NCBI GenBank assembly: GCA_050175015.1
Contig: JBFXJJ010000003.1
Location: forward strand, 1 to 64,000
From: Alphaproteobacteria bacterium
Lineage (GTDB): Bacteria > Pseudomonadota > Alphaproteobacteria > JBFXJJ01
Reading direction: 5' to 3'
Length of the DNA stretch: 64,000 bases
The translations under genes were made by a program, and so were the position numbers. Positions 1,532 to 41,505 of the stretch are shown in pieces. Position 1 is the stretch's first letter. The number at the start of each line of letters is the position of its first letter. The notes under the pieces are model-generated. The model searched no databases. It was given only the letters and a program-made list of their open reading frames with translations, and was not told the DNA's origin.

Positions 1532-1539
1532 AATATCCC

Positions 1540-3231: not shown

Positions 3232-4680
3232 TTAGTTTGCCCCTAGTACTTTTATCAGTTCATTTTTTAGGGCATCTCTGGTTGCTTGAAGCGAGCTTGC
3301 TATTTTATGATATTCTTGCATCAGTTCTTCAGGGTCTAAAATTTTTTCAACTTCTTGATGAGGGTTTTTAATATCAAGATTATAGTTTTTATCTTTAATT
3401 TCTTTTGCAGAAACTTTCCAAGCATGTTCATTGGTTTTGCGGTTGTTCCACCAGTTTTTTTCTAAATCAAATTCTTCAATGGTTAGAGGCTTGCTCCTTG
3501 AATAAGACTTATACCCTTCTGGATAGGGGTGTTCAAAAAACCAAATGTCCTTAGTTTTATCGCCTTTTTCAAAAAATAATAAATTGGTGTTTATGCTTGT
3601 ATAGGGGCTAAAAACACCTTTAGGCAATCTTACAATCGTATGAAGGTTAAATTCTTCTAACAATTCTCTTTTAATGGTAGTTTTTACGCCTTCGCCAAAC
3701 AAAAAGCCATCTGGTAAAACTAATGCTCCCCTGCCTGTATCGTGTTTTAAAAGATACATGATAAGTGCTAAAAATAAATCGGCGGTTTCCCTTGTTTGAT
3801 ATTTTTTAGGAAAATTCTTTTCTATGCCGTCTTCTTCCATTCCACCAAAGGGCGGATTGGTTATAACAATATCAACTCTATCTTTGGGACTGTAATCTTT
3901 TAATGGTCGGCTGAGTGTGTTGTCGTGCCTAATGTTGGTTGGAATATCAATGCCGTGTAACATCATATTAGTCATTGCCAGCATATGAGGAAGGGGCTTT
4001 TTTTCTACGCCGTAAATTGTATCTTGCAGTATTTTTGAATCTTCGGCGGTTTTGGTTTGTTTTTTTAGATGCTCAATAGCACAAATTAAAAAACCACCCG
4101 TTCCGCAAGCTGGGTCTAAAATGGTTTCGCCAAGTTTGGGGTTAATTATGTCAACCATAAATTGGGTTACGGCTCTTGGGGTGTAATATTCGCCTGCGTT
4201 GCCTGCGGATTGTAAGTCTGCCAAGATTTTTTCATAAATATCGTTAAATAAATGGCGGTCTTTTGAAGAATTAAAATCAACATCGTCTTCAATGGTGTTT
4301 ATTACTTGCCTTAGCAGTGTGCCTGATTTCATGTAGTTATAGGCATCTTCAAAAACTGAGCCGACAATTCTGCCATGAGGGGAAATGCCTGCTTGGGTTG
4401 CCAGTTTTTTAAAGGCTGGGAAAAGGTCATTGTTTACAAAATCAATCAGCTCTTCGCCTGTTATGCCCTCTGAATCTTTTGCCCAATTAGACCAGCGGAA
4501 ACGACTTTGCAAAGGTGATTTATAATTAGGGATTGTAACTTGCCATTCTTGCTCTTTGTCATCAAAAATCTTTAAAAACAAAAGCCAAACTATCTGGCTA
4601 ATTCTTTGTGCATCGCCATCAACGCCCGTGTCTTTTCGCATTATGTCTTGAATGACTTTTATTAAAGTTGAAATTGGCAT
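3232..4680 (-). CDS. hsdM: Type I RM N6-adenine methyltransferase
   Basis: GEYYTPR, DPACGTGGFL and NPPF motifs. Confidence 0.97.
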   Translation of the reverse strand: MPISTLIKVIQDIMRKDTGVDGDAQRISQIVWLLFLKIFDDKEQEWQVTIPNYKSPLQSRFRWSNWAKDSEGITGEELIDFVNNDLFPAFKKLATQAGISPHGRIVGSVFEDAYNYMKSGTLLRQVINTIEDDVDFNSSKDRHLFNDIYEKILADLQSAGNAGEYYTPRAVTQFMVDIINPKLGETILDPACGTGGFLICAIEHLKKQTKTAEDSKILQDTIYGVEKKPLPHMLAMTNMMLHGIDIPTNIRHDNTLSRPLKDYSPKDRVDIVITNPPFGGMEEDGIEKNFPKKYQTRETADLFLALIMYLLKHDTGRGALVLPDGFLFGEGVKTTIKRELLEEFNLHTIVRLPKGVFSPYTSINTNLLFFEKGDKTKDIWFFEHPYPEGYKSYSRSKPLTIEEFDLEKNWWNNRKTNEHAWKVSAKEIKDKNYNLDIKNPHQEVEKILDPEELMQEYHKIASSLQATRDALKNELIKVLGAN

Positions 4681-4696
4681 TTTTGTTTCCTAGTTT

Positions 4697-7066: not shown

Positions 7067-7301
7067 TTATACCGTTTTGCAAAATCAAAGATGTTTTAAA
7101 ATATACCTAATTTTTAATAGCATAAACCGTTTGTGATTTCTATTTATAATGTCTGGTTGTGGGTTAATATCGTTGGAGGTATAGGCATTTTTCTTAAATT
7201 TTATGCCATATATAAACTTTTGGTATGACTGTGGGTGTGTTTTTAAGAAGTTTTTAGTTTTAGCTATTGTTTTTTCTTGAATTTTAAGCTATAAATAAAC
7301 T

Positions 7302-8066
7302 ATGGGTATATTAAAAGATAAAAAATTAAGAAGTGTTATGCAAAACTGGCAATCAGGATTTGTTGCTACAACATACTGGTTTAAAAGCTTATCTGTGTCT
7401 CCTCAACTAGTTCAAAAATACATAAAAAGCGGGTGGATAGAAGCTATCGGCAGGGGAGCTTATAAAAAGCCTAAAGATACGATAAATTGGTATGGCGGGC
7501 TTGCGTGTATTCAGCAACAGCTTAATGTTCATTTAGGTGGGGCGACCGCTCTTAGCATAAGGGGCAATTCTCACTATGTTCGTTTTGGTAAAGAAAAAGT
7601 GTTTTTGTTCTCTGATATAAACCAAAAACTTCCAAAATGGTTTTTAGATTATGACTGGGGCAATCCCATAGAGGTTATAAAAACTTCTTTTTTGCCTCAA
7701 AATCTTGCCATAAATCCCTATGAATTTAATAGTTTTAGTATTGAGGCATCTTCTCCTGAAAGAGCAATATTGGAATGCTTATATCTAAGTCCTGATCATT
7801 TTGATTTGCTAGAATGTTATCAAATATTAGAAGGTTTGAACAATTTAAGACCAGATGTTTTGCAGGATTTGTTAATCGGGTGCAATTCTATAAAGGTAAA
7901 AAGGTTGTTTCTTTATATGGCAAAAAAAGCAAAATTGCCTGTTTTAGAATATATCGATTTAGATAAAATAGATTTAGGCTCTGGAAAAAGATATTTAACC
8001 AAAAAAAGTGTTTATGAAAAAGAATTTAAAATAAGCATACCAAAGGAACTTGTTGATTATGTTTGA
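7302..8066 (+). CDS. abiEi: Type IV toxin-antitoxin antitoxin, AbiEi family
   Basis: N-terminal wHTH-like region (GWIEAIGRGAY), SSPERAILE, SIKVKRLFLYMA, IDLGSGKR; overlaps the abiEii start. Confidence 0.88.
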   Translation: MGILKDKKLRSVMQNWQSGFVATTYWFKSLSVSPQLVQKYIKSGWIEAIGRGAYKKPKDTINWYGGLACIQQQLNVHLGGATALSIRGNSHYVRFGKEKVFLFSDINQKLPKWFLDYDWGNPIEVIKTSFLPQNLAINPYEFNSFSIEASSPERAILECLYLSPDHFDLLECYQILEGLNNLRPDVLQDLLIGCNSIKVKRLFLYMAKKAKLPVLEYIDLDKIDLGSGKRYLTKKSVYEKEFKISIPKELVDYV

Positions 8067-8961
8067 AGTTTATAAAGAAAAAGTTGCTCTTTTGCTCAAA
8101 GTTTTGCCTCTTGTTGCAAAGGAAGAATGTTTTGCTATTCACGGAGGGACTGCGATTAATCTTTTTGTTAGAGATATGCCAAGACTATCGGTTGATATTG
8201 ATTTGACTTATGTTTTTATTGAAGATAGGGAAACAACGCTTAAAAAAATTGATGAGACTTTGCAAAGAATTAAATCAAGCATAGAAAAGTCAATTAAAAA
8301 CAGCAGAGTAACTTATAAAGATAATGTTGGAAAACTGCTTATTTACCTTGGCAATGCCGATATTAAAATTGAGGTTAATCTGGTTAATCGTGGACTTTTA
8401 TCGGAAGCATTGAAAATGCCTTTATGCAAAAAGGCTCAATCTAATTTTGAAGCATTTGCAGTTATGCCTGTTGTATCAATAGGACAACTTTATGGGGGCA
8501 AAATTTGTGCGGCGTTGGATAGGCAACACCCAAGAGACTTATTTGATATTAAATATCTTTTAGAAAATGAGGGCTTTTCTGAGGATATTAAAAAAGGTTT
8601 TTTGTTCAACCTCTTGTGTAGCGATAGACCGATTAACGAAGTGATTTTTCCTAACTTTCAGGATCAAAAGCAAACAATGGATAACAAATTTGTTGGTATG
8701 AGTGAAGATGCTTTTTCTTATGATGATTTTGAAGCAACCAGAGAAAAGCTTGTAAAAACTATCAATACAAATTTAACTGATTATGATAAGGCTTTTTTGC
8801 TTAACTTTAACAGCTTAATGCCCGATTGGTCGGTTTATGATTTTGCAAAATTCCCTGCTATTAAGTGGAAGCTTTTGAATCTTGAAAAACTTAAAAACCA
8901 ATACCTTGAAAAATACAATTTGCAAAATGAAGCATTGAAAAAAGCTCTTCTTGATAAATGA
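8059..8961 (+). CDS. abiEii: Type IV TA toxin, AbiEii nucleotidyltransferase
   Basis: HGGTAINLF..PRLSVDIDL and GKICAALDRQHPRDLFD motifs; ATG at 8059 preferred. Confidence 0.92.
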   Translation: MFEVYKEKVALLLKVLPLVAKEECFAIHGGTAINLFVRDMPRLSVDIDLTYVFIEDRETTLKKIDETLQRIKSSIEKSIKNSRVTYKDNVGKLLIYLGNADIKIEVNLVNRGLLSEALKMPLCKKAQSNFEAFAVMPVVSIGQLYGGKICAALDRQHPRDLFDIKYLLENEGFSEDIKKGFLFNLLCSDRPINEVIFPNFQDQKQTMDNKFVGMSEDAFSYDDFEATREKLVKTINTNLTDYDKAFLLNFNSLMPDWSVYDFAKFPAIKWKLLNLEKLKNQYLEKYNLQNEALKKALLDK

Positions 8962-9505
8962 TGTTATATGTTCTTTAGGTGTTAAAATATGACACCTAGC
9001 GGACGTATAAAACTTTCTTATTTTCAAACTCGTTGAGCAATGGAATTGCGAATAAGAATATCCCCATTTAATGGGCAGGAGAAAAGTGATATTACTTTTC
9101 ATGTCCTGCCTTCTTAACCTAATTAGAAACAAGTGCAAACATTGAGAAAGAGGTGGAATAATTGATAAATTTTGCGGAAGATGTGCAAAGCCTTTGTTTG
9201 CGTGGGTTTGCGTTGGTTCTGTTGTTCAAAAATTGAGAAAGAACAGGACATTTTGAGACAGAATAACAAAAATTGAAAAACTTTTAGAAACTCCTAAACC
9301 CTCTTAAACTAGCAGATAAAATATGATAATTTTTGAGTAAAGCCTTGTTTTTCAAGGGGTTTAGAGCATTAAAAACATTTTCCGAAAGTGAAAACTTGCG
9401 GAATAAAAGGCTAAAAAATGAGGAATCTTAGGGAAACAAGCGGAAAGCATTTGTTTTCAAGCATTAAGCCTGTTTTTCCAGAAGAGACGCTCTGGTTGAT
9501 AAAAT

Positions 9506-9976
9506 TCAACAGTTCTTTATTTTTGAGATTTTGGTTCTAAATGAGCAAATCATATTTAAAAGGGCTTCACTTTTTTCTTTATCAATTGCAAAAGTAGATG
9601 TTTCAAAAGTTCCCCCTGTTGCTTTTTTATCTATCTCATTCCAGTCGTTTTGTAGTTCGGATACAAGGCTTGTTTTTATATGTTTATTTCCTAGTGCTGT
9701 TATATTATCTCTGACCTTTTTTATTTCGCTTTTTAGTGTGTTGCCACAGTTAATACGTTCATCTTTCTTTAAATTCTCACTCCAATATTTGCAAGCATTA
9801 CGTACGCATGAATCACAACACATCAATAATTCCGAAGTAAGATAATTAAAATTATTATTATTTTTATTTTTTTGAAAATAACAGTAGCTAACAACAGTGT
9901 TTATCACAAAAATAAATAGGTTTGCTATAATGCTATACCAAGCTATATCTAATTTATTTGACACATTATACCCCAC
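9506..9976 (-). CDS. Hypothetical protein with N-terminal TM helix; last gene of the HATPase-STAS module
   Basis: 156 aa ORF with a hydrophobic N-terminus; overlaps the STAS gene stop. Confidence 0.7.
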   Translation of the reverse strand: MGYNVSNKLDIAWYSIIANLFIFVINTVVSYCYFQKNKNNNNFNYLTSELLMCCDSCVRNACKYWSENLKKDERINCGNTLKSEIKKVRDNITALGNKHIKTSLVSELQNDWNEIDKKATGGTFETSTFAIDKEKSEALLNMICSFRTKISKIKNC

Positions 9977-10289
9977 TTGCTTCTTTTATATAACTCCAGA
10001 TAAGATCGCAAATAGAGTTATCTTTGCAGGTCAGTTTTAATTTCTGTTTTATTTCTTCATATTTCATTTGGTTAACAAGAATCAATCCAGCAAAAGCTTC
10101 ATCCCAAAAAGATGAGCCAACCCCTTCTAAATCATCAAGATTAATTTCTAGCTCTATTATATTTTTATCTTTGAGATTTGGGGTTAAAAAGTTGTTTCTA
10201 AATTTTTCTCCATTAAAAATTCCATCACTTTCATAACGACCTGCTGGTTCTGGCGAAAAATCCTGAGCTATTGATATTGTTTTTTTCAT
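9966..10289 (-). CDS. STAS-like (DUF4325-type) protein
   Basis: IAQDFS.EPAGRY..DG.FNGEKFR..L and INLDDLEGVGSSFWDEAFAGL (phosphoacceptor-like SS). Confidence 0.85.
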   Translation of the reverse strand: MKKTISIAQDFSPEPAGRYESDGIFNGEKFRNNFLTPNLKDKNIIELEINLDDLEGVGSSFWDEAFAGLILVNQMKYEEIKQKLKLTCKDNSICDLIWSYIKEASGV

Positions 10290-10307
10290 ATTTTTTCTTT
10301 TTCTCCT

Positions 10308-10460
10308 CTAAATTGGAACTTGCCATTGGATATATGTCCCATTAATTTCCTTTTCATTGTTTTTAACAAATTCCCCTTTATTTTTGTAAACATATTGCCC
10401 TTTCAAGCTATAAATTTGTAATTCTGCACCTAGTTTGTTAACTTTATTTATATAATTTTT
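10308..10460 (-). pseudogene. 3' fragment of the HATPase gene split by IS1595
   Basis: Reads KNYINKVNKLGAELQIYSLKGQYVY...INGTYIQWQVPI*, in frame with 12591-13483 once the IS and one TSD copy are removed. Confidence 0.88.
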
Positions 10461-10538
10461 CACATATATCCCTTTACGTACTTTAAATAATTTTATATAC
10501 TATATATAAAGTACAAAATTATATTAAAGGAATATATT

Positions 10539-11462
10539 ATGAATTTTTTTGATTTTATTAAAAAATTTCCAACAGAAGAAGCTATTATAGATTATTTTAT
10601 AAAGATTAAATATGGCGATGAAATAGTTTGCCCTAAATGTGGAACTAACCATAAAATTTATCAAAAAACAACTCGTAAAAAAGTATTTGATTGCAATTCC
10701 TGTCATAATTCTTTTTCAATTTTTAAAGGAACTATTTTTGAAAAATCTTCAACAGATTTAAGGAAGTGGTTTTATGCTATTCATTTAATGTTAAATTCGA
10801 AAAAGGGTATATCTGGGTTACAACTTCAAAGAGAAATAGATGTAACTTATAAAACAGCTTGGAGAATGCTTAAACAAATTCGTATTGCAATGGGAAACGT
10901 TGATAATAATTATTTTGAAGCTATGGTTGAAATTGATGAAACATATGTTGGGGGCAAACCAAGAAAAAATAATAAACATAAAAATGACGATGATGACTTT
11001 GATGACCATATACCAAACAAAAGGGGTAGAGGGACTAATAAAACTCCTGTAGTAGGATTGAAAGAAAGAAATACAAATAAAGTTCAAATGTTTGTTGCTT
11101 TGCCAAATCAAAAACAACATAAATTATCAGGAAATCAACTTCTTGGTATGATTGATAAAGTATGTAAAAAAGGTTCAACTATAATTAGTGATGAATTTAG
11201 AGGTTACAATATTTTAGATAGAAAAGATAGCAACTATGTTCATTTAAGAATTGACCACACAATTATGTATGCAGATGGTAATATACATACTAATGGAATT
11301 GAATCAGTATGGTCATTAATTAAACGTGGTATCTATGGAATATATCATCACGTTAGTATAAAACATCTTCAAAATTATTTAAACGAATATCAATTTAGAT
11401 TAAATAATAGAACTGAATCTAAAATGTTTGATATTTTATTAAAACAATGTGTAATTGGTTGA
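10539..11462 (+). CDS. IS1595-family DDE transposase
   Basis: Zn finger CPKC..CNSC, SKKGISGLQLQR, VEIDETYVGGK, SDE, HTNGIESVWS, YLNEYQFRLN. Confidence 0.95.
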   Translation: MNFFDFIKKFPTEEAIIDYFIKIKYGDEIVCPKCGTNHKIYQKTTRKKVFDCNSCHNSFSIFKGTIFEKSSTDLRKWFYAIHLMLNSKKGISGLQLQREIDVTYKTAWRMLKQIRIAMGNVDNNYFEAMVEIDETYVGGKPRKNNKHKNDDDDFDDHIPNKRGRGTNKTPVVGLKERNTNKVQMFVALPNQKQHKLSGNQLLGMIDKVCKKGSTIISDEFRGYNILDRKDSNYVHLRIDHTIMYADGNIHTNGIESVWSLIKRGIYGIYHHVSIKHLQNYLNEYQFRLNNRTESKMFDILLKQCVIG

Positions 11463-11492
11463 AAAGGTTAATAGTGCTAACCTTTTCAACCA
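11456..11492. terminator. Hairpin between the convergent transposase and TM2 genes
   Basis: TGGTTGAAAAGGTTA / TAACCTTTTCAACCA perfect 15-bp inverted repeat. Confidence 0.6.
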
Positions 11493-11497
11493 TATAA

Positions 11498-11830
11498 TCA
11501 ATTACGTAACATTTTATGTTCTGCTAAGATGTTCTTTGATATTATATCATTTTTTGTTTTAACTAGACTTGATAATAAAAACAAATCAACAATCCACCAT
11601 ATAATACCAATAAAAACAGCAAATAAAACCCATTGTAGAAACTGCATAGAAATACGGTCTACATAAAATCTATGACAACAAATAAACCATAAGCATATAG
11701 CTCCTAACAAGGTTTTCCTCTTCTTCCCATATTCATCAGCAAACATTTGCCTAACAGCATCATCTTCTTTGACTAATTGAGATTTAACTATCATTGAAAG
11801 TTCTTTTTCAATTTCTGCGTAAGATGTCAT
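11498..11830 (-). CDS. TM2-domain membrane protein (IS passenger)
   Basis: KKRKTLLGAICLWFICCHRFYV...GIIWWIVDLFLL resembles the TM2 G-x-HRFY / W-x-x-D pattern. Confidence 0.75.
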   Translation of the reverse strand: MTSYAEIEKELSMIVKSQLVKEDDAVRQMFADEYGKKRKTLLGAICLWFICCHRFYVDRISMQFLQWVLFAVFIGIIWWIVDLFLLSSLVKTKNDIISKNILAEHKMLRN

Positions 11831-11884
11831 TCTTTTCTAAACTCCCATTTTTAATTTAATAAAAAACCACCAGTTTTTAAGTGG

Positions 11885-11966
11885 TGGTTGGGAGTTAGTA
11901 GAACCGTATTCCGAAAACGGTGCAGTGCTTTCAAGCATACACCTTTATAACACTGCCTCCCAACCA
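11885..11966 (-). ncRNA. C4-type antisense RNA (P1 c4 / P4 CI-like)
   Basis: Outer stem TGGTTGGGAG..CTCCCAACCA enclosing two inner hairpins (GCAGTG..CACTGC and ACCGT..ACGGT) and an unpaired TTCTACTAA; followed by a U-tailed hairpin at 11861-11888. Confidence 0.7.
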
Positions 11967-12025
11967 TAATGGTTTAAGAGACAATATTTATTTTTCGACC
12001 TAATGCCTTTGGTCGTCAGAATAAA

Positions 12026-12064
12026 GGAGCTACTAAACTCCAGAATGTAGATTTTGCTACATTC
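12026..12064 (-). promoter_or_regulatory. c4 a1/b1-like target hairpins, downstream of a putative promoter (TTGTAT-17-TAATCT, ~12072-12102)
   Basis: Minus strand GAATGTAGCAAAATCTACATTC-TGGAGTTTAGTAGCTCC: GCAAAATC-loop hairpin followed by a hairpin complementary to the C4 loop. Confidence 0.65.
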
Positions 12065-12155
12065 CGAAAGTTAGATTAATTTAATTATTGATAAAATACA
12101 AGTTAAAGAAGATAATTGTATTTTATTCATATACTTTTTTAGAAAGGGTAAGAAA

Positions 12156-12392
12156 ATGGGACCGCTTACATTTGAATATTCTAAAGATGTTGATGTTAAT
12201 CCTGTTATGCATCATATTTTAATTAAAAAAGAAAATGGCGAAGCATTAACATTATTTACATCACCAGAGCTCGAATTAACTAAATTTAATGTAAAATCAG
12301 CAATGAGAATGCTTAAATATTTTGATGTAATAGATGAAGAAGATTATTTTCTTGGTAACCAAAAGTTAGATTCTTTTACATCAGAAGAATAA
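12156..12392 (+). CDS. Hypothetical protein (IS passenger)
   Basis: 78 aa ORF preceded by an AAGGG RBS-like sequence. Confidence 0.55.
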   Translation: MGPLTFEYSKDVDVNPVMHHILIKKENGEALTLFTSPELELTKFNVKSAMRMLKYFDVIDEEDYFLGNQKLDSFTSEE

Positions 12393-12499
12393 CTATTAAT
12401 ATATGCTCTAAGAAGTACTCTAGCAAATTCTGGATTGTTACTTTCTTCAAGGTAATATAATATATCTTTAAGATTTTCTACCGTATATATTGTTTTCAT
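12344..12499 (-). CDS. Small hypothetical protein, 51 aa (IS passenger)
   Basis: MKTIYTVENLKDILYYLEESNNPEFARVLLRAYINSYSSDVKESNFWLPRK*, AGGAG RBS; below the ORF-track cutoff. Confidence 0.45.
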   Translation of the reverse strand: MKTIYTVENLKDILYYLEESNNPEFARVLLRAYINSYSSDVKESNFWLPRK

Positions 12500-12590
12500 T
12501 TTTAACTCCTATATAATTTTTTTTATTCATTATTATTTATATTTATAAATAACTATATATTGAGCAAAAGTATGTTAAGGGATATGTGTG

Positions 12591-13483
12591 TAATTTTTTA
12601 TATCTAACAAACCTCTGCCCCTATTTGTTTTCTTTGTTGAGGTTCTTTTGGTTCTGGTTGCAGCCTGTATAATTTCGGCATCTCCTGTGAACCCAGCAAT
12701 AGATTTGAACAACTCAGGCCATGTTTTTGGCAACGTTTTAGGAATTCCTACCCCTTCATCATAAAACATAACAGTTAAAATTTTGTTTCTTAAATTAATA
12801 GATGCAGACATCCACCATAATTTCTCTTTTATCATATTATTTTGTAAATATTCTATAGGATAAGCGTGGTGTATTGAGTTGGTCATAGCTTCTGTTAGCC
12901 CCGCTTGTAATTGTTGCCCCTCAGGAAAGTATGTCAATTCAGATATAAGTTTTTTTAATTTTGTTACATCTTCCCCTGAAGCCATATAACCAGATTGAAA
13001 TTTTAAGAATATTTCATCTGTTTTATTTTCAATATTATTGAAATTTTGAGGAACATTTTTTACATCTAAAATTTCAAACATTCCCATATCTCGCAGTTGT
13101 AATTTAACATTTTCATTCCATGATTCAAAATCAAGAACAGATAAGTTAAATTTTTTAAATAATCGTGTTTTTTTAATTCTATCGATTTCGGCAGTAAAAA
13201 TTAGAGCTGCTGCTGGAGATATGTTTTGTATTTTTGTAAAGTCGATTTTAAAAGGAGATGTTCTGTCTGTACAGAGTTTCCTTAATTTATTAAAAAAAGT
13301 AGCGGTTTCTTCGTAGTTTTCTTGCAAATTCATATTTGTTGGAGCGACTAAAACTCTATTTTGGGTTCTTTCAGTAATTGCTTTTAATGTAATATATTTA
13401 TACTTCCTTTTAACTCTATTACAAAATGATCTTTTGGCATATTCTACCCAATATCTTTTTTGTTTTTCAGAAAGTTTTTTCAT
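12591..13483 (-). pseudogene. STAS-like + GHKL/HATPase protein, 5' part, interrupted by IS1595
   Basis: N box LTEAMTNSIHHAY, G1 FYDEGVGIPKTL, G2 NRGRGL; the ORF-track tail THIP* is IS IR sequence. Confidence 0.88.
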
Positions 13484-13587
13484 CTTTAGTTCGAAATTAG
13501 ATTTTAAAATATGTTTAAAATAATAAGTTATCTGAATTAATATTTTTTACAATCTATAAATTAAAATAAATAACTTTTTATTCATAT

Positions 13588-15150
13588 TCACATACTCATA
13601 CCGAAGCCGTAGCCTTTACTTTTAGAAAGGGCGAGTTCTTTTTCTTTTAGGTGTTCTTTATAGCTTTGGTGCATTTTTTGATAAAATTCATCGTTGGTTT
13701 TTAGGGTTTCTTTGATGGCTTTATAAGTTTCATCATCTTTTTTAAGTTCAGTTTTTAGCTCTTTCATCATATCATCAATGGTTTTGCTTTTAGTTCTTTC
13801 TGCATTTAGCGTATCAGATATTTTATCATAAACAAAAGAGGGGATACTTACTTTTCCTCCAAGCTCTTCAATGGCAATAACTTTTGATACAGCATATTTG
13901 CCATCTTCAAGATAATAGAATTTGTTTTTATTATCATATTTAGCAATCGCTTTGATTGCTTCTTGAGCTTCTGGTTTTTGAGGCATTTCAACATAAAAAA
14001 TTGCAGGTTCTACGGTTGGCTTAACGTCAGCTTTAATTTTTGGTTTTGTTTGAGACCGTATTTCTGTTTTAAAGCTTTTTATTGTGGGTTGGCTTTTTTT
14101 ATCAGCATTTAGAAATAATGCGTTTATTAGTTTCTTCTGGGCAACAATAACTGCCATTGCAAATGGATCTTTTAAGGCTTCTGCCATTAAAAAATCTTTC
14201 CAAGTATAAAAAGCTTTTTTGAGTAAGGATTGCTCTTTGGTTTTTGCTTTTGGTTTCTTTTTAACTTCTTGATATTTTTGCCATAAAATAGGCGTGTTAG
14301 GGTGTTTGGTTAAGGGTTTTTCGGTATAGGTTCTTTTGGGTTCAACTATATGAGCAGATTCCTCAAATTTACCCAGTCTTTTTTCAAGAGCATTTTTAGA
14401 AAAAGTCCTGTCTAAATCAGAAGCCTTAATCGCAATCTTTTTATCTTTAGATACGATAGCTAAACCATTGCCTCGTTTTTTAAGAAGCAAACCAACTTCT
14501 TCAAAAGCATTATGTATGTCTTGCCATTTTTGAGCTTGGTTTAATGCTTTGGTTAAGGGTTCTTTTTGCTCTTTAACATAAGAATAAAAACTTTGTTGCC
14601 AAGTTTTAGCTTCAAAGTCTCTCGCTTTCTCGTGAGGCTTTTCATAATTTGGCTCTTTAGTTTTTTCAATGCCATTATCAACTTTAAGATTATACTTCTT
14701 CTCCATATCTCGGCAGACTTTTGAGCGTTTGTAATAATCGTTTGATAAGGTCGCAACTTTAAAGGTTTCTGGGTTTATTTTATTATAGGCAATATGCATA
14801 TGAAAGTTATCAGTGTTTTGATGAGTGCCGACAACTCTTTGATGAGTTTCTATACCAAGTGCTTTGGCAAATTCTTTCTCAATTTCTTTTAGGGTTTTTA
14901 AGTCGGGCTTTTCATTTTTAAAAGATACTAATAAATGATAAGTTTTATCAACCCTGCACCGGGTATTTCGGCTTTGAGTGTTTTCAATATCAATGATGGC
15001 TAATTCTAAATCATCAAGAGTTTCTCCAGCATCAGAGTTGACAATCCAAAAATCAGATAGTTTTTCGCCATCGTCTTCAGCTCCTGCGATATATTTAGCA
15101 AGCCTTCTAAAACTGCTTTTAGTTGTTCTTGGAATATGTTTAGAAATCAT
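13588..15150 (-). CDS. MOBP-family relaxase
   Basis: LAKYI (catalytic Tyr), YHLLVSF, HQNTDNFHMHIAYN; basic C-terminal tail SKSKGYGFGMSM. Confidence 0.9.
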   Translation of the reverse strand: MISKHIPRTTKSSFRRLAKYIAGAEDDGEKLSDFWIVNSDAGETLDDLELAIIDIENTQSRNTRCRVDKTYHLLVSFKNEKPDLKTLKEIEKEFAKALGIETHQRVVGTHQNTDNFHMHIAYNKINPETFKVATLSNDYYKRSKVCRDMEKKYNLKVDNGIEKTKEPNYEKPHEKARDFEAKTWQQSFYSYVKEQKEPLTKALNQAQKWQDIHNAFEEVGLLLKKRGNGLAIVSKDKKIAIKASDLDRTFSKNALEKRLGKFEESAHIVEPKRTYTEKPLTKHPNTPILWQKYQEVKKKPKAKTKEQSLLKKAFYTWKDFLMAEALKDPFAMAVIVAQKKLINALFLNADKKSQPTIKSFKTEIRSQTKPKIKADVKPTVEPAIFYVEMPQKPEAQEAIKAIAKYDNKNKFYYLEDGKYAVSKVIAIEELGGKVSIPSFVYDKISDTLNAERTKSKTIDDMMKELKTELKKDDETYKAIKETLKTNDEFYQKMHQSYKEHLKEKELALSKSKGYGFGMSM

Positions 15151-15461
15151 AATTCCTCAATCTTTGCCCTTAAAATTGCTCGTAAATCTGCAATAGCGTT
15201 AATGTGCTTGTTTAACTCTTCAGGATAAAAATCTTCATCAAGAGCCATTTTGAACAAATTACCTAGCCTTGCTAAATCAGCATTGATTTTAAGAAGGTTT
15301 TTTATAGTTTCGATTTTTTCAGGAGCTTGACGAACCAACGTTCTTAAGAAAGCCGACATTGATAAATCATGCCTTTTAGCTCTTTCACTAAAAGTATGTT
15401 TTTCTATTAATGTAACTCTAACTAAAATATTAGCAGTTTTTTTGTTAAATTCAGGCTTCAT
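15147..15461 (-). CDS. mobC: MobC/TraJ-like relaxosome accessory protein
   Basis: RHH-like VRVT..EK....A....LSMSAFLR and LLKINADLARLGNL; overlaps the relaxase start; start chosen at MKPEF. Confidence 0.8.
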   Translation of the reverse strand: MKPEFNKKTANILVRVTLIEKHTFSERAKRHDLSMSAFLRTLVRQAPEKIETIKNLLKINADLARLGNLFKMALDEDFYPEELNKHINAIADLRAILRAKIEEL

Positions 15462-15714
15462 AATTTTAAGCTTTATTGGTTTAAAATAACTCTTAGAATT
15501 ATATGCCATTTGCCTTGAAAAACCTAATTTTATGGCGTTTTTTTATAGCCTCTTTTTTGCAATTTTTTGTCGTTTATTAAGGCTGATAAAAGCCCCAAAA
15601 ACTACTTATATATTTTGGTAAAGAATAGACGAGAATCGAGTTGAGAAATATCTTTTGATATAAAATTATTTTTACGATACTATTTTGCTAAAATTTATTT
15701 GAAGAAATTATGCA

Positions 15715-16104
15715 ATGAAACCAAAAGAAATCGGTCCTCATGAGGGTATAGAACTAGATTTAATGCTAGAAAACAAAAAGCCATTAGCTTTTTTTAGTGG
15801 TTTAGGCGATGAAATCAAATTATTTCCCATAGATGCCTTTGATAACTTGGTTAAACAAAACAGGCTTGTTTCTAAAAAATATTTTTTTAAGAAAAACGTT
15901 TATGGCAAAGAATTAGATGAATTTTTAATTTATTATGCACTTCCCAATGAAACCCACAGAATAGATAAACTTAATAAAATCATGTTAGATTTAAGAGAAA
16001 ATCCTAGATTTGATAAAGATATAGAGCAAGAAATCGGTCTTTTACTAGGCTACAGCAAACATGAAATAAGTGTTTATATTAAATGGGCTACCGAAAAAGC
16101 TTAA
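15715..16104 (+). CDS. Hypothetical protein convergent with the PG-binding gene (candidate immunity/partner)
   Basis: 129 aa, IGPHEGIELDLML..KKPLAFF and IGLLLGYS; stop overlaps the partner stop by 4 bp. Confidence 0.75.
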   Translation: MKPKEIGPHEGIELDLMLENKKPLAFFSGLGDEIKLFPIDAFDNLVKQNRLVSKKYFFKKNVYGKELDEFLIYYALPNETHRIDKLNKIMLDLRENPRFDKDIEQEIGLLLGYSKHEISVYIKWATEKA

Positions 16105-16562
16105 GCATTTGCTTTAATAAAGCACCAATGACATAAATTTGGAGAATAAACTCCTCCATGTATTGCCCCACATTTAGAGCAAACGTAATAAGCTAAATCT
16201 TCTTCGTCTGATTGTTCTGTATCATTCTCGATTTGGTCGTGTGGCTCATATTCGTTTACATAATAATTCGATGCATTTGCTAAGAGTTTTAATTTGTTTT
16301 CTGTTTCTCCTTCAGGTTTCATAATGCTATCTGGAAAAAGAGAATTCTTTTTTTGAAATTCTAAAATAGAATCAAAAAGCTCTTGATTTGGAATAGAGGA
16401 TATTTTTCCTAGGTTGTTTTCTACTTTTGTCGGTTTATACATTCCTATTGAAGCTAGAGCTTTCTTAACATTCAAAACATCATCTTGGTTTACATTAGCA
16501 TTGCTAGCTAGGTAATCTTTTAGACCTTTAAAAGAATACAAATTGTTTTTTTGTGAGTTCAT
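16101..16562 (-). CDS. Peptidoglycan-binding-domain protein with C-terminal Cys4 Zn-ribbon
   Basis: DDVLNVKKAL..FDSILEFQKKNSL.PD.IMKPEGETE; CSKC..CHWC tail; ATG 16562 has an AGGAG RBS; clearly homologous to the N-terminus of 37696-39177. Confidence 0.75.
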   Translation of the reverse strand: MNSQKNNLYSFKGLKDYLASNANVNQDDVLNVKKALASIGMYKPTKVENNLGKISSIPNQELFDSILEFQKKNSLFPDSIMKPEGETENKLKLLANASNYYVNEYEPHDQIENDTEQSDEEDLAYYVCSKCGAIHGGVYSPNLCHWCFIKANA

Positions 16563-16688
16563 TTCTAATTCTCCTATTTTGTTAAAAAAGGAAAACATAC
16601 CACAAAATAGGAAAAAAATCAAGGGTGCTTAGGAATATTTTCTTAAACTCAAAACAAGTATAAAATTACCAATCTACACAATTAAAAA

Positions 16689-17753
16689 TCACCCATCGCC
16701 CAAAAACTTTTTGTTCATTCGTTCTAAAACGCCTGCGGTGTGGGCTTCGGATAGGTGTGAGTATCTTTTGACCATAGCAAGAGTTTTATGTCCCAATACC
16801 TCTGCAATCTCTGCTAGGGTTGCTCCGTTCATAGCAAGATAAGATGCGGTTGAATGTCTTAAATCGTGGAATCTAAAATCTTCAATGCCAGCTTTTTCAA
16901 CAGCAGTTTTCCAGCTTGTGGTTATATTGTTAGGTTGTTTAGGATTGCGAGGACTTGGAAAAACTAAATTAGTATCTATTCTTCTAATTTTTGAATATTC
17001 AAGCATTAAATCATAAGCACTGCCGACTAAAGGCAAAAGTCTGATTTCGCCATTCTTAGTTTCATATAACGTAATAACTTTACGGTTAAAATCTATTTGT
17101 TCCCAAGTAAGATTGATTATCTCACCAAATCTTGCCCCTGTGCTTAATGCCAAAAAAACAACGTGATACAAATGAGAGCTGGAACTTTCTTTGCAGGCAT
17201 TTAACAAAGCTTCTTTTTCTTCTTCTGATAAGTAACGGACTCGTCCCCTTGGTTCTTTCAATTTTTTTAGTTTTAACATAGGGTTGTTTTCCAGCCATTC
17301 CCATTCATTAACCGCAACATTGAGAACTGTTGTTAAGGCTGTTGTATATCTGTTTACCGTTGAGTTAGAACGTTTGCTGCCTTTTTCAGTAGGTGTTTCA
17401 ATAAGCTTTTGTCTGGTTTGAGATATTAAAGATGTGGTTAAATCAGCTAAAGTATATATCCCTATTTGCTGTTTCCACCAGTTAAGTTTAGGAACAGCGT
17501 CTTTTGCTCTTTTAGGTTTATTTGCTAAAACTTCTTTGATATACCGCTCTATTAAATCTGATACGTTTCTTTTTCTAAGTTCATTAGTTGGAAAATATCG
17601 ATTGTTTAAAATAGCACTTTCAATTTCGTTAGCCCAATTTTTAGCATCAGTTAAACGAGAAAAGGTAGCCGTTTGAGTCGGGAAGCCTTTTTTACGGACT
17701 TTGACTCGATATTGGATACCTTTGTTAGTCTGCCGTTTCTCAATGTTTGCCAT
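16689..17753 (-). CDS. int: Tyrosine recombinase / integrase
   Basis: TGARFGEI (R), TKNG (K), FHDLRHSTAS (HxxR), LGHKT..MVKRYSH (H, Y). Confidence 0.95.
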   Translation of the reverse strand: MANIEKRQTNKGIQYRVKVRKKGFPTQTATFSRLTDAKNWANEIESAILNNRYFPTNELRKRNVSDLIERYIKEVLANKPKRAKDAVPKLNWWKQQIGIYTLADLTTSLISQTRQKLIETPTEKGSKRSNSTVNRYTTALTTVLNVAVNEWEWLENNPMLKLKKLKEPRGRVRYLSEEEKEALLNACKESSSSHLYHVVFLALSTGARFGEIINLTWEQIDFNRKVITLYETKNGEIRLLPLVGSAYDLMLEYSKIRRIDTNLVFPSPRNPKQPNNITTSWKTAVEKAGIEDFRFHDLRHSTASYLAMNGATLAEIAEVLGHKTLAMVKRYSHLSEAHTAGVLERMNKKFLGDG

Positions 17754-18121
17754 AATAAACCCTTTTAATCTCTACAAATTATAAGCAACCGAAAGATGAT
17801 ATATCATTGCATCATAAATATCAACTTGATATTTAGACCGTTGGCTTATTAGATTATTTGCTTGTTTTTCAATATATTAGGCTTTTACATTAAAATATAA
17901 GGGGCATTTAGGGGCAATACAATAAAAAGACAGGCATAGATATATTTCAATTAAGCTTATTATTCCTAATTATTTTTTAAAATTATATGGGCGTATTATT
18001 ATTGTTAATTTTTATGTTTCGTTGGCATTTTTTGAAATTAATTGCCCCTAGATTGCCCCGCAAGTGTTTTTTATGGTATTTTATTACCGATTGATTTTTG
18101 TGATAAAGCTATTGGATTTAC

Positions 18122-18211
18122 TGGCGGAGAGAGAGGGATTCGAACCCTCGGAACCCGTAAGAGTTCAACGGTTTTCGAGACCGCCCCGTTCGACCACTCC
18201 GGCATCTCTCC
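18122..18211 (-). tRNA. tRNA-Ser(CGA)
   Basis: GGAGAGATGCCGGAGTGG..CT-CGA-AA, long variable arm, GGTTCGAATCC..CCGCCA. Confidence 0.96.
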
Positions 18212-37447: not shown

Positions 37448-37513
37448 AGCGTATGTTGTTTAATCGGAATTATTCTGACGGAATAAAAAACGCCATATGT
37501 ACTCTTTTTGTTC

Positions 37514-37542
37514 TTGACATTTGGAGCTTTTTCCCTTATAGT
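37514..37542 (+). promoter_or_regulatory. Sigma70 promoter upstream of the toxin gene
   Basis: TTGACA-17 bp-TATAGT. Confidence 0.7.
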
Positions 37543-37588: not shown

Positions 37589-37664
37589 AAGCCCTGTTTG
37601 AATACTTTTTTAAAGTTGTGTTTTGTTTGCAGCTTTAGGAGATTTTCGAACAGGGCTTTTTTTT
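37589..37664 (+). terminator. Long U-tailed hairpin in the toxin-gene leader
   Basis: AAGCCCTGTTTGAA...TTCGAACAGGGCTT followed by a T-run; extended inner pairing. Confidence 0.65.
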
Positions 37665-37695
37665 ATGTTTTAAAATATTATGAAGGGATAAAAAA

Positions 37696-39177
37696 ATGTC
37701 TAATGAGAATATTAAAGAAAATAGTTTGTTAAAAAATACTTTAGCTGAGAACTAAAGTTCTGATTTAGAAGATGTTGTAAAGGTCAAAACCATTTTAGGA
37801 AACCTTGGTTTTTATGAACCAGAAGAAAGGATAGGAGAAAGCAGCGCTAATATATCACCCTATCCTAATGCTAATTTGTTTAACGGGATTAGAAAATATC
37901 AAAAAGCCAAGGGATTAACCATTGACGGAGTTATGAAGCCAGATGGAGAAACAGAAAACAGTTTAAAAGATATTCTCTCAGGAAGAATTTTTCCTATAGA
38001 GGGCGTTTCTAAAAATAAGCAGATCTTTGAGAATGGTGCATTTAAGGGTTTGAACGATTATATAAGTTCGAACAGTTCCGTTAATAATGATGATGTTTTA
38101 AATGTCAAGAAGGTGCTGGTTAAGGCAGGGCATTATGAACCGAACAGCCGAGCAGGAGAAAGTGTCTCTAACTTAAGCGGTTATCCTGATGAGACTTTTT
38201 TTAATGCTATAAAGAGCTTTCAGAAAGACAAAGGTTTATTAGTTGACGGAGTAATGAAGAAAGGCGGTGAGACCGAGAGCGCATTGATGAACAGTTTTAT
38301 GGAACCAAGTGAGAAAGAGAAAGCAAGGTTAAAAAAAGCTGGGATTTATAACAAAGTAAGATTTATGACTGAACCTGTTGCCAACAAAGATAACTCTCAA
38401 GAAAACAAAAGCTCAATAACACAGGCTCAAGAAACAAACTCTCAAAATAAAGATGTTAACAAAACGCTTTCTAAAGAAAACAGTATAGATGCCGACAAAC
38501 TAACCATAAATGATTTTGGAAAAAAGGGAGAAAAATGTATAAATATTAATACGTTTCAAAATACTTTTCCTAACAAAGCCAGTGCAGAGGCTCAAAGACA
38601 AGGTATTGTTTATCGGGAAGTAAATCCTGATGCTGGAAAGAACACGGCTATTTACATGGCAAATGAAATGAATAAAAATTCAAAGGAAGTACAGACTGAA
38701 ACCTATAAACAAAATTCAAGTTTTTATAGTGATGTTAATGACAATAAGAAATGGGATCATAAACCTCAAATCAAAAATGAAATTACCAATGGCTTAAATG
38801 TTGAGATCAAAAAGCCTAGAGATGGAAACCCTAATATCCAGCCTCCTGTTAACTATAGATCTAAAGATGGTACTTTACATAATGTAACAACAATCAAAGG
38901 CGATGATAAGAATGTATACGATCATGACATCTGGTCTAATGTGCATTATGGTTATGTTGGCAGAGCTAATGAAAGTTCAAAAACTTTTTTAAAAGTAGGA
39001 AGCTTTGTAGAAGACTTGGTTAAAAACAGAAGTTTTGAGCTCAAAGACTTAGAAGCTGTTAACCTTGGTTCGAAACTTTGGGATAAATACGGTTCAAAAG
39101 GAATAGATATAACTCCTGAAATTTTAAATGAAGAAAGCATAAAAAATAAAGATAAATTAAGCACTTACCCTAGATAA
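37696..39177 (+). pseudogene. Polymorphic toxin: two PG-binding-like repeats + linker + Ntox44-like predicted RNase; in-frame TAA at codon 20
   Basis: ATG 37696 with AAGGGA RBS, MSNENIKENSLLKNTLAEN*SSDLEDVVKVK.. in frame with ORF 37876-39177; C-terminal WDHKP..YDHDIWSNVHYGYVG..D..AV.LG..LW. Confidence 0.75.
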
Positions 39178-39715
39178 CACAAGTTAAAACAAACATAACA
39201 AAGGCTGTAAGAGATAGGGATATACTCTTATCTTTATCTCTTACAAGCATAAATATATTATAAATATATATAATAGGAAAAATATATTGTATATAATAAA
39301 AAGGGGCAGTAATTAACATAACAAGTCGTCCTACAGAACGCTCTATTGTTAGATAGAAAAAAAACCATATGAAAAACTTTATTAATTGAAAAAAAATCAG
39401 AAGGAATATTGCTTGTTTTTGATAGGTATTCCAATTTTTTAATTTTAAATAACTATATAAATAAAATAATATTATCAAAGATAAAAATATGCAAAAACAA
39501 AAACCAGTCCAGACTATGATATTATGATATTGGTAATTTTGAACTATATATGAACCTATAAAGTGAATCATATAAAATATAGGGCCAAAGATAATAGAAC
39601 TGATATAATAATGCAAACCAACAACATATCTATCATTAAGAATAAAAAACTGTATCAAAGCTAGAAGAGCAATAACACCGACTTTAAACCATTTATTTTG
39701 AAGAATTTTTAACAC
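39170..39715 (-). CDS. Multi-pass membrane protein, cassette copy 1 (candidate immunity)
   Basis: GTG start with AGGA RBS, about 5 TM helices; stop overlaps the toxin stop. Confidence 0.75.
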   Translation of the reverse strand: MLKILQNKWFKVGVIALLALIQFFILNDRYVVGLHYYISSIIFGPIFYMIHFIGSYIVQNYQYHNIIVWTGFCFCIFLSLIILFYLYSYLKLKNWNTYQKQAIFLLIFFQLIKFFIWFFFYLTIERSVGRLVMLITAPFYYIQYIFPIIYIYNIFMLVRDKDKSISLSLTAFVMFVLTCVI

Positions 39716-39923
39716 TTAACGCTTTTTCCTAAAGTTCAATATAAAATCACTTTTTAAAATCTTAACAATGATATTATAATTAAACAACAAAATCTTTTTT
39801 TAAAGATACCTATGCCGAAGCCGTTAAACTTTTAGGATAAATATGGTTCAAAAGGAATAGATATAACTCCTGAAATTTTAAATGAAGAAATCATAAAAAA
39901 TAAAGATAAATTAAGCACTTACT

Positions 39924-40460
39924 CTAGATAACACAGGTTAAAACAAACATAACAAAGGCTGTAAGAGATAGGGATATACTCTTATCTTTATCTCTTACAA
40001 GCATAAATATATTATAAATAGAAACAAGATAAAAAGGAAAACGAATATAGTAAAAAGGAGCGATTATCAGCCATAATCCTCTTCCTAATGAATACTTTTC
40101 TGTTAAATATATAAAAATACAAATAAAAAACTTTATTAATTGAAAAGTAGAAAAAAGAAATATCGCTTGTTTTTTGTAAGTTTTCCAATTTTTTGATCTT
40201 AAATATTTATATAAGTAAAACAGTATTATCGAAGCCAATATTATAGATACACAAAAACCTATCCAACCTATTGGATAAGCGTAAGGGCGGTAATTTTGAG
40301 TTACATAAGATGCTATATAAAAAGCGGGAGAAAAGATAAGATAACTAATAAGAAGATGAAAACCTAAAATTAAGTTATTATTATAACAAAAAGACGGAAT
40401 TATAGTGATGAAAACAATGAAGCCTATTTTAAACCATTTATTTTGAAGAATTTTTAACAC
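39924..40460 (-). CDS. Multi-pass membrane protein, cassette copy 2
   Basis: Paralog sharing MLKILQNKWFK and ..SISLSLTAFVMFVLTCVI; divergent middle. Confidence 0.75.
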   Translation of the reverse strand: MLKILQNKWFKIGFIVFITIIPSFCYNNNLILGFHLLISYLIFSPAFYIASYVTQNYRPYAYPIGWIGFCVSIILASIILFYLYKYLRSKNWKTYKKQAIFLFSTFQLIKFFICIFIYLTEKYSLGRGLWLIIAPFYYIRFPFYLVSIYNIFMLVRDKDKSISLSLTAFVMFVLTCVI

Positions 40461-40668
40461 TTAATGCTTTTTCCTAAAGTTCAATATAAAATCACTTTTT
40501 AAAATCTTAACAATGATATTATAATTAAACAACAAAATCTTTTTTTAAAGATACCTATGCCGAAGCCGTTAAACTTTTAGGATAAATATGGTTCAAAAGG
40601 AATAGATATAACTCCTGAAATTTTAAACGAAGAAATCATAAAAAATAAAGATAAATTAAGCACTTACC

Positions 40669-41208
40669 CTAGATAAAAAACTTATACATTATAAATGATG
40701 TAAGAGATAAAGATATGCTTTTATTTTTATCTCTTATTATCATAATAGCATTGTAAATATATATAATCGGGAGAATATATTGCATATGATAAAAAGAAAA
40801 TATAATTATCATAGCACGTCGTCCTACAGAACGTTCTATTGTTATATAGAAAAAAAGCCATATGAAAAATTTTATTAATTGAAAAAATGAAAAGAAAAAT
40901 ATTGCTTGTTTTTGATAGTTTTTCCAGCTTTTCGATTTTAAATATTTATATAAATAAAACAATATTACTAAAGATAAAAAAATACAAAAATAAAAACCAG
41001 TCCAGACTATGATATTATGATATTGGTAATTTTGAACTATATATGAACCTATGAGATGTAATATATATAGCGGAAGGGAAAAAAGATAACCACTAACAAA
41101 GATACCAAAGCCAAAGAACAATTCATATTTAAAGAAATAAAACTGTATCAGAGCTAAAAGAGCAATAATCCCTATTTTAAACCATTTGTTTTGAAGAATT
41201 TTTAACAC
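40669..41208 (-). CDS. Multi-pass membrane protein, cassette copy 3
   Basis: Paralog sharing IGSYIVQNYQYHNIIVWTGF with copy 1. Confidence 0.75.
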   Translation of the reverse strand: MLKILQNKWFKIGIIALLALIQFYFFKYELFFGFGIFVSGYLFSLPLYILHLIGSYIVQNYQYHNIIVWTGFYFCIFLSLVILFYLYKYLKSKSWKNYQKQAIFFFSFFQLIKFFIWLFFYITIERSVGRRAMIIIFSFYHMQYILPIIYIYNAIMIIRDKNKSISLSLTSFIMYKFFI

Positions 41209-41416
41209 TTAACGCTTTTTCCTAAAGTTCAATATAAAATCACTTTTTAAAATCTTAACAACGATATTATAATTAAACAACAAAATCTTTTTTTAAAGAT
41301 ACCTATGCCGAAGCCGTTAAACTTTTAGGATAAATATGGTTCAAAAGGAATAGATATAACTCCTGAAATTTTAAATGAAGAAATCATAAAAAATAAAGAT
41401 AAATTAAGCACTTACC

Positions 41417-41505
41417 CTAGATAACACAGGTTAAAACAAACATAACAAAGGCTGTAAGAGATAGGGATATACTCTTATCTTTATCTCTTACAAGCATAAA
41501 TATAT
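41417..41505 (-). pseudogene. 3' remnant of a fourth cassette gene
   Basis: Encodes MLVRDKDKSISLSLTAFVMFVLTCVI* only. Confidence 0.8.

Follow-up and report, generated by a model that had tools for sequence, protein, structure and literature searches.

Polymorphic toxins, MuF toxins linked to phage capsids, and colicins are already known, and the locus described here has likenesses to all three. In the polymorphic toxins catalogued by Zhang et al. 2012 (PMC3482391; here and below, what is said of cited works refers to the parts of them that were accessible), a constant N-terminus is combined with variable tips, Ntox44 among them, and tip replacement and orphan cassettes have been described. 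Among the colicins, an immunity gene opposite to the toxin gene is typical of those acting on the membrane or on peptidoglycan synthesis; the envelope-acting types (colicin M, colicin Z and the pore-forming colicins) have an SOS box at the toxin promoter and, downstream on the opposite strand, an immunity gene for a membrane protein, with multi-helix types such as PmiA and PmiC (PMC6668396, PMC5821083). The window analysed here, the first 64,000 nucleotides of contig JBFXJJ010000003.1 of an alphaproteobacterial genome (assembly GCA_050175015.1; host genome, G000), carries at 37696..39177 (+ strand) a toxin-like gene encoding two PG_binding_1-type repeats, a linker and an Ntox44 tip, followed by a convergent gene for a membrane protein. 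Sequence comparison supports a family in which a constant N-terminal repeat is joined to interchangeable toxin-like tips, and on balance we lean towards regarding its members as SOS-induced, lysis-released, colicin-like polymorphic bacteriocins with an envelope target, to which the facing membrane proteins would give immunity.

The two repeats of the window gene (37726-37980 and 38038-38304) are 46% identical to each other and are matched in two stretches by PG_binding_1 in Pfam (E 1.9e-11); the second, of about 85 aa (38038..38304, + strand), is an intact domain. A polar, N/S/K/E-rich linker leads to the tip (38722..39174, + strand), which bears WDHK, N-x-H-Y-G and D-x6-G motifs and is mainly helical in its model. 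At 38722-39081 the tip is matched by Ntox44 (PF15607) with E 1e-10 and 42.3 bits against a cut-off of 24, and the DxK, NxxxG and D..G motifs are present. An earlier note, made from the sequence alone, had proposed two repeats of about 85 aa, a low-complexity linker, an Ntox44-like C-terminal motif and a convergent neighbour overlapping the stop by 8 bp, all of which were confirmed. Its statement that RHS, CDI, PAAR and LXG regions are lacking also holds: at E<=0.1 Pfam returned nothing for the window protein besides PG_binding_1 and Ntox44, so that no known trafficking family, no MuF domain and no Tol/TonB translocation or receptor-binding family was detected (short boxes were not searched), and the lack of a signal peptide was judged by eye only. 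Xanthomonadales effectors of type IV secretion systems carry a C-terminal VirD4-binding (XVIPCD) domain; no C-terminus of this type is present here, Ntox44 extending in Pfam to the end of the window protein.

What the note overlooked in the anatomy of the gene is that its frame is not intact. The reading frame from ATG 37696 is broken at codon 20 by an in-frame TAA within repeat 1 (37753..37755, + strand) and is open from 37756 to the gene end, and the identical TAA is found in the second two-repeat gene of the genome, on contig C7. A sequencing error is unlikely because the TAA is present in both genomic copies and in a variant-free contig at 27x: in this contig, which belongs to run X1, labelled a landfill metagenome and possibly the source sample, the shared part has a depth of 27 against about 15 for single-copy sequence, and the TAA position is covered at about twice the single-copy depth with no alternative letter; rare variants are dropped from contigs. 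An altered genetic code was ruled out, as TAA terminates 849 of about 1300 long open reading frames. The window copy is probably silenced or truncated. Candidate restart codons follow the stop (TTG 37876, ATG 37933), and a restart ahead of repeat 2 would yield a normal build, since 52 of the 140 homologues described below have one repeat only. Because both two-repeat genes carry the early stop, the strain is probably immune while producing little or no toxin, unless translation resumes ahead of repeat 2.

The toxin gene meets its partner tail-to-tail with an 8-bp overlap. The partner (39170..39715, - strand) encodes a polytopic membrane protein of 181 aa with six hydrophobic segments, a candidate cognate immunity protein that belongs to no family in Pfam, PHROG or NCBIfam. 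The earlier note had seen this gene as a single partner; the convergent gene stands, but a tandem array of partner paralogues behind it had escaped attention. The array is made up of three units, each about 750 bp long, plus a stub. Every unit contains roughly the final 100 bp of the toxin gene together with one partner paralogue and the region upstream of that paralogue. The duplicated 3' tail of the toxin gene lies at 39831..39931 (+ strand) and again at about 40576-40676 and 41324-41424, the copies being 96-98% identical; paralogue 2 (39924..40460, - strand, 178 aa) and paralogue 3 (40669..41208, - strand, 179 aa) are 64% and 68% identical to the first partner, respectively, and the 3' end of a fourth copy remains at 41413..41505 (- strand). 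Conservation within the units is uneven, with tails and upstream flanks 96-99% identical and the coding core 65-79%. The tail is a genuine part of the Ntox44 domain, since it aligns with the distant homologue P0031. No partner homologue was found outside the host genome in the loci searched, and ESM Atlas matches did not exceed 0.80.

A tip swap is recorded at the C7 locus of the same genome. The C7 copy has 884 bp of leader and N-terminus in common with the window copy, with 9 differences, of which the coding part holds 6 non-synonymous and 1 synonymous; its tip is a Tlde1/YkuD domain with the H and C motif, followed by a co-directional gene for a 147-aa membrane protein and then by a left-over Ntox44 tail with a convergent partner, 47% identical. 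As in the Tlde1 effectors of type VI secretion systems (T6SS), the tip is of the Tlde1/YkuD type with this motif; it differs from them in being fused to the repeat, in having an unrelated membrane partner and in occurring in a genome without a match to VipB. The host genome holds three tips among its family genes. Beside the C7 copy (L001:583-6073, G000:C7) stand four co-directional genes for helical proteins of 306, 302, 815 and 410 aa, resembling by eye a multi-component pore-forming toxin and followed by an autotransporter-like gene, for which Pfam gave nothing significant.

The extent of the family was estimated with a profile of the repeat, cluster representatives being counted: a threshold of E<=1e-3 gave 1593 clusters and one of E<=1e-10 gave 413. 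From the best 150 matches 10 multi-repeat generic proteins were excluded; in 135 of the remaining 140 the domain starts at most 45 aa from the N-terminus, with two repeats in 88 and one in 52. Tips of at least 80 aa are present in 115 and fall into 66 groups. The interchangeable tips proposed in the earlier note are therefore borne out, by the swap within one genome and by a C-terminus that varies across the family. Among 137 matches and the two genomic copies, Pfam names the tips as SAA (5), GH108 (3), Tlde1 (3), pesticin (2), M23 (2), Ntox44 (2), SLT (1) and lysozyme (1), and one internal MuF was found. Orphan partner cassettes also occur, as the left-over tail and partner on C7 and as the tandem partner units. 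A broader profile (E<=1e-7) matched 34 of the 401 genomes of the class, several of which have many copies; among the genomes compared, none is related to the host more closely than at class level. Word-based homologue searches were nearly blank, and repeat 2 had no match in 50,697 GenBank phages.

The tips named above bear on a reading in which these proteins are modular self-lysis or wall-remodelling enzymes of an SOS or prophage programme, the partners being unrelated or limiting self-damage. PG_binding_1 joined to GH108, lysozyme or M23 is the build of modular endolysins too, which counts against the bacteriocin reading; an SLT tip, the missing signal peptide, and co-regulation and linkage with a lysis module point the same way. 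Ntox44, Tlde1, pesticin and SAA tips, however, are known from toxin systems, and tip swapping with left-over partner cassettes and diverged partner arrays is not expected of endolysins; the self-lysis reading is held to be improbable.

The function of the tip deserves separate consideration. The earlier note labelled Ntox44 a predicted-RNase toxin family, and on that version the tip would be a cytoplasmic RNase neutralised by the convergent partner. In an alignment of 54 sequences N, G, D and G are invariant, and D and K nearly so; the tip model built from it is mainly helical with a pLDDT (predicted local distance difference test) of 85.6, against 33 from the single sequence. With this confident model, Foldseek searches of PDB and BFVD gave no match at E<=0.001; in the VIA fold search the best Z was 4.7 and no RNase fold was listed; no solved relative of the tip was found by sequence. 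The gene after Ntox44 encodes an N-terminal hydrophobic segment at 18 of 21 places in 13 genomes of the phylum. Of 43 metagenome Ntox44 loci, 8 were dropped as duplicates or broken, and in 24 of the 35 distinct ones the next gene has a hydrophobic segment (15) or, by eye, a lipobox (9); the closest relatives within the class are flanked by polytopic membrane genes as well. The RNase label is doubtful because the neighbours of Ntox44 are mostly membrane proteins or lipoproteins. The cytoplasmic RNase can appeal to the score above the Pfam cut-off, to the invariant polar residues and to the toxin table of Zhang et al. 2012, where Ntox44 appears with DxK, GNxxxG and DxxxD motifs and no assigned immunity family (PMC3482391). 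Against it stand the six hydrophobic segments of the partner and the mostly membrane-anchored neighbours, together with the observations that bacteriocins of the nuclease type have small, soluble immunity proteins co-expressed with them (PMC5821083) and that an opposite orientation agrees with a target in the membrane or in peptidoglycan (PMC6668396), so that this version is regarded as very improbable indeed.

A relation of Ntox44 to the Lipocone (SAA-like) enzymes was also considered and is not claimed: the spacing of motifs was suggestive by eye, but neither hhalign (probability 0.1 and 0.3 against SAA, with shallow alignments) nor the fold searches gave support, no SAA or Wnt chain being among the 50 fold-search matches listed. 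Four further loci (L096, L097, L099 and L101, in G329, G159 and G018) encode proteins with Ntox44 at the N-terminus and, by eye, LysM-like and MuF-like or broken-hairpin-like ends, an inverted toxin architecture; each is flanked by polytopic membrane genes.

Upstream of the window gene, a motif scan revealed a LexA-type box, GTAC-N7-GTTC (37499..37513, + strand), absent from the inventory of the earlier note. It abuts the -35 hexamer of a sigma-70-type promoter candidate, TTGACA-17-TATAGT (37514..37542, + strand), which has 11 of 12 matches and is the best of the region; as a whole, the scan for promoters and terminators gave about as many sites as expected by chance. In the box GTAC stands as a variant half-site. 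The alphaproteobacterial LexA consensus is GTTC-N7-GTTC (PMC8565304). There are 48 LexA-type boxes in the host genome, 14 of them intergenic; among the intergenic ones are those ahead of recA and lexA, of both two-repeat genes, of two more toxin-like loci and of the gene that opens a phage-like module; the chance expectation is about 0.007 per 260 nt. Across the family, a strict box was found upstream of 9/50 genes against 5/209 other genes. Between promoter and start codon lies a long leader hairpin followed by a U-run (37589..37666, + strand; z = -5.2, 0/200 shuffles equally stable), terminator- or attenuator-like and confined in sequence to the two paralogous loci of the host genome; it may be an attenuator or the end of a small RNA. 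For the partner gene the promoter scan found no clear promoter, the best candidate having 9/12 matches.

SOS-type control could also be expected of suicide or anti-phage cassettes induced by stress and directed at the producer in the manner of toxin-antitoxin systems, and such a role agrees with the residence of family members in an integrative element with restriction genes and in a phage-like module, both described below. Exported and membrane-bound partners, diverged arrays and orphan partners nevertheless fit protection against incoming variants, and the cytoplasm offers no target to a wall-binding domain; we think the suicide reading highly improbable.

The orientation of neighbouring genes was tabulated with our own gene caller in 40 fetched regions, chosen from among the stronger broader-profile matches, and in the earlier loci; three regions (G187, G261 and one of G386) yielded no called family gene and are not counted. 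Of 51 family genes called, 49 have a downstream neighbour, convergent in 30 and co-directional in 19; within 70 bp the counts are 27/41 and 14. In the host genome 542/2032 neighbours are convergent overall and 160/1135 at tight spacing, and among flanking genes 29/85. At least one tight convergent neighbour occurs in 13/18 genomes. The enrichment of convergent partners suspected in the earlier note is thus seen; convergent immunity has a precedent in the membrane- and peptidoglycan-directed colicins, as stated above. Most partners begin with a hydrophobic segment. Sel1 repeats were found in 14/36 partners scanned, all 14 convergent, while the Tlde1 tips and three of the four SAA-like tips examined have co-directional partners: orientation depends on tip class.

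Stronger than these counts is the recurrence of particular tip-partner pairs. A family gene at 16101..16562 (- strand) has a short CxxC..CxxC tip without a Pfam match and faces a convergent gene for a 129-aa soluble partner (15715..16104, + strand), which overlaps it by 4 bp. Its domain is 46% identical to window repeat 2, and no strict LexA box lies upstream. The earlier note was right that the domain recurs here with a different tip and a convergent overlapping partner; it is present as one repeat, not two. The same pair of CxxC tip and partner is convergent again in genome G387 and in viral contig L167, the partners in the host genome, G387 and L167 being 34-44% identical (E<=4e-14).

The SOS-type box, the missing signal peptide and T6SS, the envelope-type tips, the opposite-strand membrane partners and the diverged arrays match the logic of envelope-acting colicins, and a mechanism may be outlined on that analogy. 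LexA would hold the toxin promoter off until DNA damage. With neither a signal peptide nor a T6SS to carry it out, the protein would be freed when the cell lyses, the likeliest agents being the holin and endolysins of a LexA-boxed module on contig C2. The PG_binding_1-type repeat may concentrate the tip on the peptidoglycan of a rival, and the Ntox44 tip would act outside the cytoplasm, on the membrane or a cell-wall precursor and not on RNA. The partner may be transcribed constitutively from a promoter of its own on the opposite strand, and uninduced siblings would therefore be protected. Duplication via the conserved tail and promoter flanks could have produced the array, whose diverged cores may cover related tips. 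As to other export routes, the host genome, 99% complete, gave no match to VipB; it does have ATPases of T2SSE type and, within a pilus cluster, one VirB4-like gene. At G000:C9 15500-30700, VirB4-like and VirB3-like genes stand divergent from a pilus-type cluster with, by eye, secretin-like, ATPase and platform genes, a possible export route.

Several points weigh against the bacteriocin reading. Most tips lack a Pfam name, and the word toxin rests on the named minority and on context. The coupling of the partner to Ntox44 is limited to two loci of one genome, because no homologue of the partner was found elsewhere in the loci searched, and the 6 non-synonymous changes against 1 synonymous between the two copies fit decay. 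The neighbour counts for Ntox44 lack a random-gene control, involve several candidate frames per locus and draw their 21 places from 13 genomes only. A strict box is missing from 41/50 family genes, the 16101 gene included. In the orientation counts, 19/49 downstream genes are co-directional, two of the convergent neighbours are housekeeping genes (secA and a ribosomal-protein gene), a lone gene inserted at random would end up facing its neighbour in about half of cases, and genes of one genome are not independent. No lysis gene adjoins the window copy or the C7 copy, the holin and lysins belonging to another LexA-boxed module. A protein this large would also need some way across an outer membrane.

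That module (L170, G000:C2 ~163400-177600) is T7-like. It has genes for portal, scaffold, capsid, tail tubes and a fibre, for a CI-like repressor and an internal protein, and for terminase, a holin and two lysins; neither replication genes nor large internal proteins were seen in it. A LexA-type box lies ahead of the module in 4/5 genomes examined. The portal was found in 86/401 genomes of the class, and at E<=1e-130 its homologues occur in 47/401, about 50-60% identical across families. Pairs of family gene and partner lie within the module in genomes G365, G088 and G098, between scaffold and capsid genes, in G009, after SleB, and in 3/3 IMG/VR contigs found (L167-L169). In G098 (L082, G098:C1 1534400-1546600) six tandem family genes stand between scaffold and capsid genes, five of them with convergent partners, four with Sel1 matches. 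Possibly the module represents a gene-transfer agent, or a particle for protein delivery, that has not been described before.

These findings bear on a further reading, that family proteins are cargo of a domesticated T7-like particle, packaged by the module in a way comparable to that proposed for MuF toxins and injected into the periplasm of relatives, with the repeat as a loading or anchoring signal. The pairs within the module favour it, as does the absence of replication genes from the module of the host genome. A profile of the scaffold C-terminus matches three family proteins of G039 (E 3.5e-7 to 2.8e-6) and P0018, and MuF is carried by two members (P0042, L059). The portal is present in 25/34 family-bearing against 61/367 other genomes, and in 16/18 with the strongest family matches, an association confounded by ancestry. 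Yet a family gene lies within the module in only 4/25 genomes that have both, none of the three family genes of the host genome does so, G238 has five family genes and no portal match, and phage modules are hot spots of accessory genes anyway. The window protein has neither MuF nor a match to the scaffold profile, and the window locus is outside any phage head module. Particle cargo is the chief rival reading and is considered unlikely. A broader proposal, that many alphaproteobacteria keep a domesticated T7-like head-tail-lysis module under SOS control as a weapon which packages envelope toxins, marked by repeat-, MuF- or scaffold-like segments, for the periplasm of relatives, with opposite-strand immunity, and that Ntox44 is an envelope toxin and not an RNase, is offered tentatively, as a conjecture that would more probably fail than hold.

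Compared with the described systems, the locus shares with envelope-acting colicins the features listed at the outset, the SOS box at motif level and the opposite-strand immunity gene in its arrangement; colicins differ in having translocation and receptor domains where the window family has PG_binding_1-type N-terminal repeats, and this family has far wider tip variety, no adjacent lysis gene, a chromosomal location in alphaproteobacteria and tandem partner arrays. From the polymorphic toxins it differs in that PGB1 appears in the accessible part of PMC3482391 only as an adhesion domain, with T2SS, T6SS and T7SS (type II, VI and VII secretion systems) for Ntox44; no class defined by the window repeat was found there, and partners of the window family are often convergent. 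The MuF toxins resemble it in that genes for portal, scaffold, capsid and terminase surround some of its members and two carry MuF; the window protein, by contrast, has no MuF, most family members are outside a phage module, and the module here is conserved, replication-less and T7-like, with a LexA-type box. Among the Lipocone toxins of Burroughs et al. 2025 (PMC12419801), whose immunity proteins are membrane proteins or lipoproteins, a supplement entry gives a fusion of a peptidoglycan-binding domain (PGBD) to SAA, with a transmembrane segment and Imm-SAA, as sporadic in Pseudomonadota, and it probably represents the SAA-tipped members of the window family; what is given there is one line of a table concerning one tip and does not define a system, and neither the main text nor the five searchable supplements mention Ntox44. 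No definition of the family, of its LexA control, of its link with the module or of the module itself was found in the literature searched, most subscription papers being outside that search.

Other parts of the window and of the host genome complete the description. The 16101 gene lies in an integrative element beside a tRNA-Ser gene (window 1-18211) with integrase, relaxase and MobC-like genes, an insertion-sequence-like gene, genes resembling type I restriction genes and a pair of toxin-antitoxin type, these assignments being made partly by eye; no att duplication was found for the element besides a second tRNA-Ser. On contig C2 (L182 and L170:67-1761, G000:C2 156105-159760), a LexA-boxed promoter precedes three tandem paralogous genes for signal-peptide proteins and then a gene for a 564-aa protein with, by eye, a lysozyme-type domain and a C-terminal wall-binding stretch and no Pfam, PHROG or NCBIfam match; this locus may be a further toxin-immunity array. 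On contig C4 (L181, G000:C4 169625-171975) a LexA-boxed promoter points toward the gene of a 465-aa unnamed protein, with two small opposite-strand membrane genes in between, toxin-like by context only.

Taken together, these data suggest a candidate bacteriocin class, defined by one N-terminal domain, for alphaproteobacterial lineages without T6SS, and the dozens of unnamed tips provide leads for new antibacterial envelope enzymes. The LexA-type box and repeated physical linkage tie the family to the replication-less T7-like module; at the same time the RNase label of Ntox44 becomes testable, the evidence from its neighbours predicting a periplasmic or membrane target.

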